IMG/VR virus record: IMGVR_UViG_2565956710_000003 | Coordinates: 1-46,613 of that record | Source of the DNA: a virus | Lineage: Duplodnaviria > Heunggongvirae > Uroviricota > Caudoviricetes | Reading direction: 5' to 3' (one strand) | DNA length: 46,613 nt | In this document: positions 8,043 to 41,592 of the stretch, in pieces | Position numbering within the stretch: the first letter of the stretch is position 1 | Layout of the letters: each line of letters starts with the position of its first letter | Notes under the pieces: model-generated | Database searches by the model: none | Seen by the model: the letters and a program-made list of their open reading frames with translations, nothing else | What the model was told of the DNA's origin: nothing | Made by a program: the position numbers and the translations under genes

Positions 8043-8940
<898 letters not shown>

Positions 8941-9201: not shown

Positions 9202-9272
9202 TGTGCTTAGTATCACCGCCAGTGGTATTTGTGTCAACACCGCCAGAGATAATTTATCACCGCAGATGGTTA
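9202..9272 (-). promoter_or_regulatory. pL promoter with oL1-oL2-oL3 operators
   Basis: Reverse complement of TTGACA (9233-9238) and GATACT (9209-9214); three 17-bp TATCACCGC-type operator sites. Confidence 0.85.
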
Positions 9273-9428
9273 TCTGTATGTTTTTTATATAGATTTATTT
9301 TTTGCAGGGTTGTGTGGATTGGGAAGGTGATCGAGAGATCTGAATTGCGATGTTTAGTGAGTTGTATCTATTAATTTTCAAATAAATACAATTGGTTATG
9401 TGTTATTGGGTGAAGGGGATCGTGAGGC

Positions 9429-13142: not shown

Positions 13143-16527
<3,385 letters not shown>

Positions 16528-39044: not shown

Positions 39045-39072
39045 ATTAACCCACCGTCAGGTGGTTTTTTTG
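39045..39072. terminator. Bidirectional rho-independent terminator
   Basis: Hairpin CCACC-GTCA-GGTGG flanked by an A-run upstream and TTTTTTT downstream; overlaps the 3' end of the Mnt-like gene. Confidence 0.6.
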
Positions 39073-39377
39073 TTTAGCAGTTCTCTCAACTTTTCGTTCT
39101 GCTCTCTGAACTTTTCCTGTATTTCTTTTTGCATGGCGATAACCTGGGCTTGAAGTTGAACTAGCGCATCAACATTTAGCGGAACCGAGACGCTGTTGAT
39201 TTTATCTGCTATTTCCCCGAGTGTATTTTCTGCATTCAAGGCATCTTCCAGTATCTGAACAATCTCTGAGTTCATTGATCTGCCGTTACGTTTGGCTCGT
39301 TCAGCTATAGCATCCCGCATTCCTGCAGGAAGCCTGATATTGAACCTATCCATTTCATGACTAGGGAACTTGCTCAT
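39057..39377 (-). CDS. mnt: Mnt-like ribbon-helix-helix repressor (copy 1)
   Basis: 106-aa ORF with RHH motif FNIRLPAGMRDAIAERAKRNGRSMNSEIVQILEDAL and a C-terminal coiled coil ending KKTT, as P22 Mnt does. Confidence 0.7.
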   Translation of the reverse strand: MSKFPSHEMDRFNIRLPAGMRDAIAERAKRNGRSMNSEIVQILEDALNAENTLGEIADKINSVSVPLNVDALVQLQAQVIAMQKEIQEKFREQNEKLRELLNKKTT

Positions 39378-39488
39378 ATGACCTCAACGTAAAGATGTTC
39401 GCTAAACAATAGCACCAACTTGACATCAAAATAAATGGTGTTAAATTGGTTCTAGAACCAAGTTGGTATCATTGTGGGAGGATTACTT
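39378..39488. promoter_or_regulatory. Divergent promoter/operator region between mnt and arc
   Basis: Palindrome GGTTCTAGAACC, flanking inverted repeat ACCAACTTG...CAAGTTGGT, and TTGACA-like hexamers. Confidence 0.6.
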
Positions 39489-39662
39489 ATGAAAGATGTG
39501 CTTTACACAGGTCGTAAAAGTCAAAGTTTCCAGCTTCGTTTGCCAGCGCGAATGAAGGAGGAGATTAGACGTGTTGCTGAAATGGATGGAATTTCTATCA
39601 ACTCTGCGATTGTGCAGCGACTGGCTAAAAGCCTGAGAGAGGAAAGAGCTAATGCCCAGTAA
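39489..39662 (+). CDS. arc: Arc-like ribbon-helix-helix repressor
   Basis: 57-aa ORF MKDVLYTGRKSQSFQLRLPARMKEEIRRVAEMDGISINSAIVQRLAKSL with GGAGG upstream. Confidence 0.7.
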   Translation: MKDVLYTGRKSQSFQLRLPARMKEEIRRVAEMDGISINSAIVQRLAKSLREERANAQ

Positions 39663-39751
39663 AAATAGTGAAGCCCGGCAGTGCGTGAACACAAACCGGG
39701 CCTCTATGTCAGTAACCGTATGCAAGGAAACTAACATGAATATTGTAGCAA
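39662..39751 (-). ncRNA. Candidate sar-like antisense RNA over the ant start region (speculative)
   Basis: Minus-strand TATAAT at 39758-39763; imperfect hairpin GCCCGG...CCGGGC (39673-39701) followed on the minus strand by TCACTATTTTT in the arc-ant spacer. Confidence 0.25.
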
Positions 39752-40362
39752 AATCAGATTATAACTTCCACGGAGTTGAATTGGTGCCCACCCGTGATAT
39801 GCATGGTGTTTGGTTTACATCATCTAATATTGCATCTGCACTTAAATACGCAAATAGTCGTGCAGTAACAATGATTTATAACAAGTATAGCGATGAGTTT
39901 AGCGCCGGAATGACTCAGGTACTCGAAGTGAGTACCTCAGGAAATTATCGCAAAAAAGTGCGAGTTTTCTCACTACGCGGTGCCCACCTAATCGCGATGT
40001 TTGCTCGCACTCCGGTAGCCAAAGAGTTCCGCCGCTGGGTGCTGGATATTTTGGATCGGCAGGCAGAATGCTCACCGATTGCAAAACAGTTTACTGACGA
40101 AGAACTGGTTAATCTCTGCTACTTACAATTGTGGATGGAGAAGAGTCAACAAATGTGCAAACACATCTACCCAGGAATGAAGCAAATTGGCTCTGAGCTT
40201 TCAGGAAGAATTTACGATATTGCATATGAGACTCGCTATATGTCAGAAGAAACCAAGAAATCACTTCTTCGTGAAATGAAGAATCTTGATACCAACAATT
40301 TTGTCGTAAAGAACGCTCAGCCAATGCTGACAAAACTGCGCGGCGAGGAATGGATTCATTGA
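39736..40362 (+). CDS. ant: Antirepressor with BRO-N domain
   Basis: About 208 aa from MNIVAKSD (AAGGA Shine-Dalgarno); N-terminal FHGVELVPTRDMHGVWFTSSNIASALKY is BRO-N-like; start uncertain (alternatives at 39652 and 39706). Confidence 0.6.
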   Translation: MNIVAKSDYNFHGVELVPTRDMHGVWFTSSNIASALKYANSRAVTMIYNKYSDEFSAGMTQVLEVSTSGNYRKKVRVFSLRGAHLIAMFARTPVAKEFRRWVLDILDRQAECSPIAKQFTDEELVNLCYLQLWMEKSQQMCKHIYPGMKQIGSELSGRIYDIAYETRYMSEETKKSLLREMKNLDTNNFVVKNAQPMLTKLRGEEWIH

Positions 40363-40384
40363 TTGGTGCGCCGGACGGCGCAAA

Positions 40385-40456
40385 AAGAAAACCGCCAGTG
40401 TGCTGCTGGCGGCCTATGTCACACCCTTACTACCACATAAGGAATGCCTAATGACT
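40385..40456 (-). ncRNA. Candidate sar-like antisense RNA over the start of the second antirepressor gene (speculative)
   Basis: Minus-strand GTGACA, 17-bp spacer, TACATT inside the first codons of the 40451 gene; hairpin CCGCCAG-TGTGCTG-CTGGCGG (40393-40413) followed on the minus strand by TTTTCTTTTT. Confidence 0.3.
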
Positions 40457-41176
40457 TTGAAGAATGTAGCAAACATCGGATCCGTTGTCACGGATAAAAC
40501 CATTGACAGCCAAAGTCTTCTGATGATGGTTAATGAAGCTCGCAAGTTATGTGGAGAGCCATCAGTACGTAACAACAAATTCATCGAGAAAATTGAGGAT
40601 GAATTGGAGGGCGAGACCTACACAAAAAGTGTAGGTCGGAAAAACGGGGCTGACATTGATGTTATCTCCATGACTATCAAGCAGGCGCTTCGTGTTGCTG
40701 CTCGCGAATCTAAAGCAGTTCGCCGAACACTTGTAGACAAACTTGAAAGTATGCAGGAAGCACACATTAAAAGCGGTAAATCAGCGAGTGGACTTGTTGA
40801 GTATCGTCAAGCGCGAACACTGAAAATGACGGTTGAAGCTGTTACCAATCTGTTCGATCTGATGCCAAATCTTGCGCCGGAGGCAAAGCAGACAGCGGCA
40901 GCAAGTATAATCAACCCGCTTGTTGGTTTTAATGCAATACCTCTTCCGGCAATAGAAGAGCATTACTACTCAGCAGGGGAGGTTGCAGAGCAGCTTGGAG
41001 TAACGGCCAACAAGATTGGTCGCATTGCTAACGCAAACAACCTCAAAACTGAGCAGTACGGGAAGTTCTTCCTGGATAAATCGGCGCATTCCAGCAAACA
41101 GGTAGAGGCGTTCCGCTACAATTCTGAAGGCGTTAAAGCACTACAACACCTGCTACATGGCTCAAATGTGGCGTAA
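40451..41176 (+). CDS. Second antirepressor-like protein (KilA-C/ANT-type C-terminal domain)
   Basis: 241-aa ORF with AAGGA 7 nt upstream; the C-terminal segment YSAGEVAEQLGVTANKIGRIANANNLKTEQYGKFFL is ANT-like. Confidence 0.55.
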   Translation: MTLKNVANIGSVVTDKTIDSQSLLMMVNEARKLCGEPSVRNNKFIEKIEDELEGETYTKSVGRKNGADIDVISMTIKQALRVAARESKAVRRTLVDKLESMQEAHIKSGKSASGLVEYRQARTLKMTVEAVTNLFDLMPNLAPEAKQTAAASIINPLVGFNAIPLPAIEEHYYSAGEVAEQLGVTANKIGRIANANNLKTEQYGKFFLDKSAHSSKQVEAFRYNSEGVKALQHLLHGSNVA

Positions 41177-41195
41177 CATTTTATAATGAAAACTA

Positions 41196-41219
41196 AACCC
41201 GCTTAATCGCGGGTTTTTT
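41196..41219. terminator. Bidirectional terminator between convergent genes
   Basis: Hairpin ACCCGC-TTAATC-GCGGGT followed by TTTTTTC. Confidence 0.65.
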
Positions 41220-41460
41220 CTTTCCTTAGAATTTCAGCCGCAACTTCTTTTACTCGTTCCGAGATTAATGAGGCCAGTCTCTCTTCTTCATCACGATACC
41301 CGCTTACAGGTGATGGTTTGGAGAGAGATTCTTCCATCGTAGCCACAATTTCGGAATTGATAGACCTGTTATTCATTTTTGCACGCTGCTTAATCTTAGC
41401 GTGCAACTCGTGCGTAAGCCTCAAGTGGAACTGCGCCTCATCGTATTTGCTGTACATCAT
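41203..41460 (-). CDS. mnt: Mnt-like ribbon-helix-helix repressor (copy 2)
   Basis: 85-aa protein from MMYSKYDEAQFHLRLTHELHAKIKQRAKMNNRSINSEIVATMEESLSKPSPVSGYRDEEERLA, closely resembling P22 Mnt (recalled). Confidence 0.7.
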   Translation of the reverse strand: MMYSKYDEAQFHLRLTHELHAKIKQRAKMNNRSINSEIVATMEESLSKPSPVSGYRDEEERLASLISERVKEVAAEILRKEKTRD

Positions 41461-41592
41461 CAATGCCTCACCAAATGGGTGGAATGGCATCGTAAAACCT
41501 ACTGTACAAATCAACAATCGTACCGTTTCGGTATGTAACAAACACTAGCCGTAGCCATGCTGCGGCGATTCCTTGTATCTGGAGCAAATTAA

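Follow-up and report, generated by a model that had tools for sequence, protein, structure and literature searches.

The DNA analysed here, a stretch of 46,613 nucleotides to which we refer as the window, derives from a P22-like (Lederbergvirus-type) E. coli prophage. Between its ejection-protein genes and its tailspike gene it carries an immI-type "ant moron" in which the following features were located.

39057-39377, minus strand: Mnt-like ribbon-helix-helix gene
39420-39447, plus strand: Pant-like promoter, TTGACA-16-TAAATT, a 10/12 match and the best promoter match of the region
39474-39662, plus strand: Arc-like gene
39736-40362, plus strand: ant1, the first antirepressor gene (Bro-N and P22_AR_C)
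40439-40443, plus strand: Shine-Dalgarno (SD) sequence of ant2, AAGGA
40451-40453, plus strand: start codon of ant2, ATG
40451-41176, plus strand: ant2, a second antirepressor-like gene of 241 aa (PHROG 1726, "anti-repressor"), without a Pfam family
41203-41541, minus strand: a further Arc-family gene
From 41593, plus strand: tailspike gene

The start of ant1 was set at MNIVAK, following the annotation of related records, and ant2 is treated as a putative antirepressor gene from its PHROG label alone. No convincing terminator was found on the plus strand between the Pant-like promoter and position 41195, where weak 5-pair sites only are present. Because none precedes the terminator at 41195-41216, arc, ant1, and ant2 are probably carried on a single transcript driven by the Pant-like promoter.

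Several further features of the region were recorded. The terminator at 41195-41216, which separates ant2 from the leftward Arc-family gene, is intrinsic and bidirectional (AAACCCGC...GCGGGTTT, flanked by a T-run on either side), and weak Rfam matches to RyhB, the Trp leader, and isrK at 41150-41220, as well as one to a Leu leader, reflect nothing other than this terminator. The gene at 41203-41541 (minus strand) is the third ribbon-helix-helix (Arc/Mnt-family) gene of the region, located between ant2 and the tailspike gene; many related loci carry it at this position, with 88 to 100% identity, and its product may be a second Mnt-like regulator. A second ATG is found 5 bases 5' of the ant2 start; it is out of frame with ant2 and nearer to the same SD sequence. 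It opens a 17-codon open reading frame on the plus strand at 40446-40499 (ATG CCT AAT GAC ... TAA), which is probably irrelevant.

A predicted antisense unit at the start of ant2

On the strand opposite the first codons of ant2 and the ant1-ant2 spacer, the elements of a short transcription unit are arranged as listed below. We refer to this unit, from its U-tract to its -35 hexamer, as the cassette.

40491-40486, minus strand: -35 hexamer GTGACA, under ant2 codons 12-14 (V-V-T)
40471-40463, minus strand: extended -10 element TGcTACATT, under ant2 codons 5-7 (N-V-A = AAT GTA GCA)
About 40456, minus strand: predicted transcription start, an A 7 nt past the -10 in ant2 codon 2, placed by promoter spacing
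40382-40456, minus strand: predicted antisense RNA of about 70-75 nt (~73), fully complementary to the ant2 SD and AUG
40418-40455, minus strand: 5' stem-loop of the predicted RNA, holding the anti-AUG CAU (40453-40451) and the anti-SD UCCUU (40443-40439)
40415-40389, minus strand: intrinsic terminator stem-loop, G+C-rich, 10 pairs, with the core CCGCCAG (40392-40398) and CTGGCGG (40406-40412)
40391-40382, minus strand: terminator U-tract TTTTCTTTTT, also the left edge of the mosaic cassette
40368-40381: a second hairpin, GCGCCGGACGGCGC, just past the ant1 stop codon

The putative promoter spans ant2 codons 5-14 and is of the extended -10 type, with the hexamer TACATT at 40468-40463, TG at 40471-40470, and a spacer of 17 nt to the -35 hexamer. 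It has the features of sigma-70 promoters of this type (TGn and TAnnnT, with a -35 hexamer at 17 +/- 1 nt) and scores as a 9/12 consensus match with the TG flagged. The RNA that would start from it is predicted to fold into two hairpins at -25.1 kcal/mol, with a modest z of -2.4; P22 sar, folded for comparison, gave -29.5 kcal/mol and z = -5.3. Across 23 unique RNAs of the cassette family, with predicted lengths of 65 to 81 nt, nearly all are predicted to form both the terminator and a 5' hairpin enclosing the anti-SD, the latter from per-sequence folds only.

The terminator stem begins ~41 nt past the predicted start (~40456). On the minus strand, a U-tract comes directly after its G+C-rich stem-loop, the arrangement that intrinsic terminators have on the transcribed strand, whereas on the plus strand no U-tract follows the hairpin at 40389-40415 and no terminator-like site was called there. 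In an alignment of 19 diverse predicted cassette RNAs (alignment A2), the terminator helix was 97.9% paired. Compensatory changes in Proteus-type sequences affect three of its pairs (G:C to A:U, C:G to G:U or A:U, and C:G to U:A). At the base of the helix, two pairs are formed with the U-tract, mostly as G:U or A:U and on the minus strand only; on the plus strand, the G:U pairs among them would appear as C.A mismatches. An A-run on the plus strand lies 5' of every cassette variant, and the sequence beyond it differs from locus to locus. The second hairpin, at 40368-40381, was considered as a part of the antisense unit and rejected for lack of conservation in relatives; it is disrupted in JEP4, SPN3UB, and KP12.

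A previous sequence-only reading of this stretch had pointed to a minus-strand GTGACA, 17-bp spacer, and TACATT within the first ant2 codons and to an antisense transcript of about 70 nt that would cross the ATG and SD of the gene. The motif is present at 40491-40463, and the predicted RNA of 70-75 nt covers both sites. The interval assigned to the unit, 40366-40470, does contain antisense elements and needs to be widened, as the -35 hexamer at 40491-40486 falls outside it. Both of the hairpins it described exist at slightly shifted positions: the CCGCCAG/CTGGCGG hairpin, placed at 40393-40413, was off by one base (core, 40392-40412), and the second hairpin, placed at 40370-40383, was off by two (40368-40381) and is neither conserved nor linked to any supported role.

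Within this one sequence the antisense unit is only suggestive, because promoter-like sites are as frequent in shuffled sequence as in the 2.8-kb region itself (5 observed versus 4.9 expected); terminator-like sites numbered 10 versus 3.1 expected. The chance of a promoter and a terminator being so arranged over one given start codon was roughly estimated at ~1e-3. The significance of the predicted unit is carried by the comparative data and not by the single sequence.

Conservation and exchange of the cassette

The Ant2 homologues recovered from GTDB genomes and IMG/VR, together with those of JEP4, phiKp_30, and KP12, provided 44 unique 5' regions (set 1). These were collected by means of the protein and are therefore unbiased with respect to the promoter. 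GTGACA-N17-TA.A.T with TG was present in 41/44. In the three exceptions (L060, L061, and L065), the 5' end is different and there is no minus-strand terminator either; the antisense unit seems to have been lost or replaced there. At these three loci (positions ~1440-1560), the gene has a GTG start, two added codons separate the -10-like from the -35-like block and give a spacing of 23 nt instead of 17, and the plus strand carries a T-run after the upstream hairpin.

Sequence variability was profiled over 16 representatives sharing no more than 95% identity. Mean entropy per position was 0.13 bit in the hexamers and TG and 1.16 bit in the central 14 bases of the spacer. All six bases of the -35, the TG, and positions 1, 2, 4, and 6 of the -10 were invariant, the -10 varying at positions 3 and 5 only. 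Third codon positions under the promoter elements were invariant in 5/5 cases, versus 3/34 elsewhere in codons 2-40 (Fisher p ~1e-4, an approximate value as the sequences are related, though both classes of site share the same tree). Under -10 positions 1-3 the encoded amino acid may be Val, Leu, or Ile, but the codon has the form xTA without exception, and while the amino acids at the -10 vary (N/T, V/L/I, and A/T/S), the bases critical to a promoter stay fixed. The conserved third positions lie upstream of the predicted RNA start, and pairing of the RNA therefore cannot explain their conservation; promoter function is the simplest explanation of these positions. Taken with the terminator, the comparison indicates strand-specific purifying selection on both elements, in agreement with the minus-strand orientation proposed by the sequence-only reading.

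A scan of IMG/VR with a pattern consisting of the terminator stem and part of the promoter yielded at least 120 contigs (set 2). The composition of set 2 is partly shaped by the pattern, which imposes part of the promoter and the terminator. Among 80 loci examined, 64 distinct cassette variants were found. Two of the observations on these loci were not imposed by the pattern: T occupies -10 position 6 in 80/80, and the -35 occurs as GTGACA, TCGACA, ATGACA, or TTGACA. The 13-18-codon leader is joined to at least four unrelated protein bodies, namely, the Ant2 type, a Rha type (KMSSREIA...), the SPN3UB gp22 type (DP..FPVIEW.G.RVVTTE...), and a further type (AGVEINTD...). Identity between loci L106 and L145 drops from 93% in the cassette to 45% over the following 300 nt, and that between L107 and L111 from 85% to 51%. 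Such breakpoints in identity occur at both edges of the cassette in locus pairs, and the unit from U-tract to -35 therefore appears to be inherited as a module and, by these comparisons, to be exchanged as a mosaic block.

It could be argued that the constraint lies in the protein: a conserved N-terminal peptide (x-N/T-V/L/I-A-x6-V-T/D), for example a tag or interaction motif, would give rise to the promoter-like motif incidentally, and the hairpin would be a feature of the plus-strand mRNA that acts in processing, stability, or sequestration of the SD. The leader is conserved at the amino acid level across different genes, and the plus-strand RNA folds as well, with its SD partly paired (-19.5 kcal/mol, z = -2.5). 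However, a peptide motif does not account for synonymous sites being frozen under the hexamers, nor for the amino acids at the -10 changing around fixed promoter-critical bases, and it sits poorly with the grafting of the leader onto unrelated domains. A plus-strand hairpin, in turn, does not account for basal G:U pairs and a U-tract that exist on the minus strand only. We consider this explanation improbable and prefer that of a selected antisense promoter and terminator.

Where the flanking sequence suffices, nearly every cassette locus has the same order: an mnt-like gene (minus strand), an arc-like gene (plus strand), a first ant, the cassette, and a second ant-like gene. The first ant is of either the window type or the P22 type. 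In one exception (L155), the cassette directly follows arc. Among isolated phage genomes queried with six cassette variants, the few carriers were SPN3UB-like phages, Erwinia phage Midgardsormr38, JEP4, phiKp_30, and KP12. A model built from the cassette-family RNAs (model R2) found exactly one copy per related locus, at 34 to 90 bits (89.6 bits for the window element), and found no copy in the P22 locus or in the promoter-less variants. In the literature on sar-like or antisense control of antirepressors, no account of the cassette family was found.

In E. coli HS (L224, NC_009800.1 327868-329669), an IS3-family element disrupts the ant2 homologue. The antisense cassette of this strain is 100% identical to that of the window, with which the strain shares only a 181-nt stretch, and the regulatory unit there appears to have outlived its target gene. 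Other cassette-bearing E. coli strains include 55989 (NC_011748.1, ~2,672,150-2,672,320) and O111:H8.

Relation to P22 sar and to other small RNAs

The P22 record gives sar as a 70-nt minus-strand RNA at 15021-15090, transcribed from a promoter at 15097-15125 inside the first codons of ant and starting 7 nt past its -10, with the sar terminator located in the arc-ant spacer. Psar itself reads GTGTTA-17-TGcTATACT over codons S-I-A ... V-N-T. The sequence-only reading had drawn a parallel between the size and geometry of the ant2 unit and those of P22 sar, and the layout is indeed that of the annotated Psar, sar, and terminator. The term "sar-like" holds for architecture and presumed mechanism and fails for membership in the sar sequence family, as set out below.

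Like sar, the cassette has, at the sequence level, its own opposite-strand promoter within the first antirepressor codons, with a 17-nt spacer and TGc preceding the -10, and in both the codon triplet "xxT xTA GCA" encodes the TGc and the -10. The predicted cassette RNA shares the known traits of sar RNA (~68-70 nt, two stem-loops, complementarity to the ribosome-binding site, and a terminator in the upstream spacer), being ~70 nt long with two hairpins, covering the ribosome-binding region, and ending in the upstream intercistronic spacer. Both are set in an mnt/arc/ant operon. The leader peptides can be aligned (NSIAILEAVNT in P22 and KNVANIGSVVT in the cassette), which hints at common ancestry in the promoter and leader part only.

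In contrast, there is no detectable similarity to sar in the RNA body of the ant2 cassette. The arc-ant intercistronic location typical of sar is not that of the cassette here or in almost all related loci; it follows ant1 and precedes the second ant-like gene instead of lying at the arc-ant junction. Its -35 is stronger (GTGACA versus GTGTTA in P22), and its terminator is canonical, with an immediate U-tract. Rfam model RF00262 (threshold, 43 bits) had no match in the window either at the gathering threshold or at E<=10, sub-regions included, whereas the positive controls gave 97.8 bits (P22) and 83.9 bits (contig L126). A second model, R1, was built from 36 diverged arc-ant junction RNAs and P22 sar; run with filters off and at E<=10, it returned nothing at 40382-40456. 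The possibility that the ant2 cassette RNA is a distant sar homologue was rejected on this result.

The cassette also coexists with true sar in the same operon, both in contig L126 and in this window. In L126 (IMGVR_UViG_2648501336_000006), a bona fide sar at 8219-8285 (minus strand; 83.9 bits) precedes an ant of the P22 type (85% identical), and a cassette at 9206-9277 (minus strand; 81.6 bits with R2) precedes the second ant-like gene. In the window, the corresponding element lies upstream of ant1.

39662-39735, minus strand: diverged sar homologue at the arc-ant1 junction, the position of sar in P22 (68.7 bits with R1, though the sequence is in the R1 seed)
~39744-39752, minus strand: its putative promoter, extended -10 TGcTACAAT over ant1 codons 3-5, matching P22 Psar in codon register

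The RNA of this companion element would begin GUUAGUUUCCUUGCAUACGGUUACUGAC..., versus GUUGGUUUUUCUCCAAGGAUUUACUGAC... in P22. Its family has two conserved hairpins, the second of which is long (GAGGCCCGG...CCGGGCUUC) and has many covarying variants, with strong covariation over 96 unique relatives. RF00262 did not match the companion element, and the one Rfam match was weak and symR-like (39667-39738, 21 bits). Identity with symR was rejected, since that match reflects the two-hairpin shape alone. With a sar counterpart at arc-ant1 and the cassette at ant2, the window operon thus appears to carry one predicted antisense RNA per antirepressor gene. By these searches, the cassette RNA and sar are two distinct families at the RNA level. 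The assignment of the cassette as an uncatalogued RNA family, of the sar kind by its architecture and presumed mechanism and outside the sar sequence family, is well supported by the sequence comparisons.

Other phage RNAs resemble the predicted unit in part. The lambda/P22 OOP RNA and the P22 sas RNA are likewise short, constitutive-looking cis-antisense RNAs with an intrinsic terminator that overlap a regulatory gene (PMC12197685). They differ in position, with OOP overlapping cII at its 3' end and sas acting inside sieB, and in neither is the promoter embedded in the first codons of the target or the ribosome-binding site covered in the same way. The c4 RNA of P1/P7 and the CA RNA of N15 are small RNAs that act at the ribosome-binding site of an antirepressor gene to block its translation (PMC12197685, PMC10732415). 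However, they are encoded 5' of the target on its own strand, are processed from the operon transcript, and act through short complementary segments, whereas the ant2 cassette would produce a cis-antisense transcript from its own promoter and terminator; the c4 type as described (PMC12197685), on the same strand and processed from the operon transcript, does not extend to it. The 24B_1 RNA of Stx phage Phi24B was considered as the same element and rejected, as it has a different location, lacks an intrinsic terminator, and acts in trans.

Proposed function and significance of the cassette

We propose that the ant2 cassette encodes a sar-like antisense RNA that represses the translation of ant2, and we give this reading a probability of about 0.75. 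From the extended -10 sigma-70 promoter in ant2 codons 5-14, transcription of the opposite strand would yield an RNA of ~73 nt that ends at the minus-strand intrinsic terminator in the ant1-ant2 spacer. This RNA would pair perfectly with the SD and start codon of ant2 on the arc-ant1-ant2 message made from Pant. The pairing would occlude the ribosome-binding site and lower the synthesis of Ant2, as sar limits Ant in P22. Pairing may also trigger cleavage of the duplex, and convergent transcription over ~70 bp may add interference. We infer the production of the RNA, its pairing with the message, and the translational repression, with the mechanism proposed by analogy with sar. According to published accounts, sar pairs with the ribosome-binding site of ant in P22 and acts in trans (PMC10732415, PMC12197685), and it has been detected by small-RNA sequencing of infected cells (PMC13397905).

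Interference could conceivably be the main function, if the unit is transcribed and acts chiefly through collision with Pant polymerases entering ant2, or if it serves as a backstop terminator for leftward read-through, with pairing at the ribosome-binding site being secondary. The convergent promoters do overlap by ~70 bp, and the leftward gene at 41203-41541 lies downstream and has a terminator of its own (41216-41195) that could leak. Against this, the predicted RNA covers the SD and AUG precisely in every variant despite differing spacer lengths; a dedicated promoter is conserved together with the terminator, and, according to the P22 literature, sar acts in trans by pairing (PMC10732415, PMC12197685). 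We hold this to be unlikely, on a par with the peptide explanation. Least probable is that the conserved blocks are "boundary sequences," that is, homologous-recombination joints between lambdoid mosaic modules that have no regulatory function: the cassette lies exactly at mosaic junctions and such sequences are annotated in related phage records ("bsq1" in CUS-3), but a joint predicts neither conserved hexamers flanking a spacer that varies freely in sequence while its length stays at 17 nor compensatory stem changes and a strand-specific U-tract. Each of the alternatives fails to explain the frozen synonymous sites, the variable spacer fixed at 17 nt, the G:U pairs and U-tract found on the minus strand only, or the joint loss of promoter and terminator.

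The preferred reading, antisense repression of ant2, can be extended further. The cassette, comprising the U-tract, the terminator, a variable anti-RBS segment, the start codon, and the 13-18-codon leader with its antisense promoter, might be a portable, self-contained silencing module that can be grafted onto any antirepressor-type gene. The hypervariable pairing segment might then define specificity classes, such that the RNA of a resident prophage silences in trans only the matching antirepressors of incoming phages, forming an RNA layer of immI heteroimmunity. We offer this extension tentatively and regard it as doubtful. If it is true, sar at ant1 and the cassette RNA at ant2 would allow the two antirepressors to be controlled independently.

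To our knowledge, P22 sar has long been regarded as a near-unique textbook case. The present comparison suggests that its design is widespread, occurring on at least 120 IMG/VR contigs and in prophages of Escherichia, Salmonella, Klebsiella, Serratia, Proteus, and Erwinia. It would occur in at least two RNA families that are missed by current RNA libraries, and one operon can carry both. Cassette genes would provide a clear example of dual coding, as an opposite-strand promoter appears to constrain their first codons. With model R2, hundreds of prophage immI regions could be annotated. The cassette may bear on how prophages, those of pathogenic E. coli included, restrain the antirepressors that trigger their induction.
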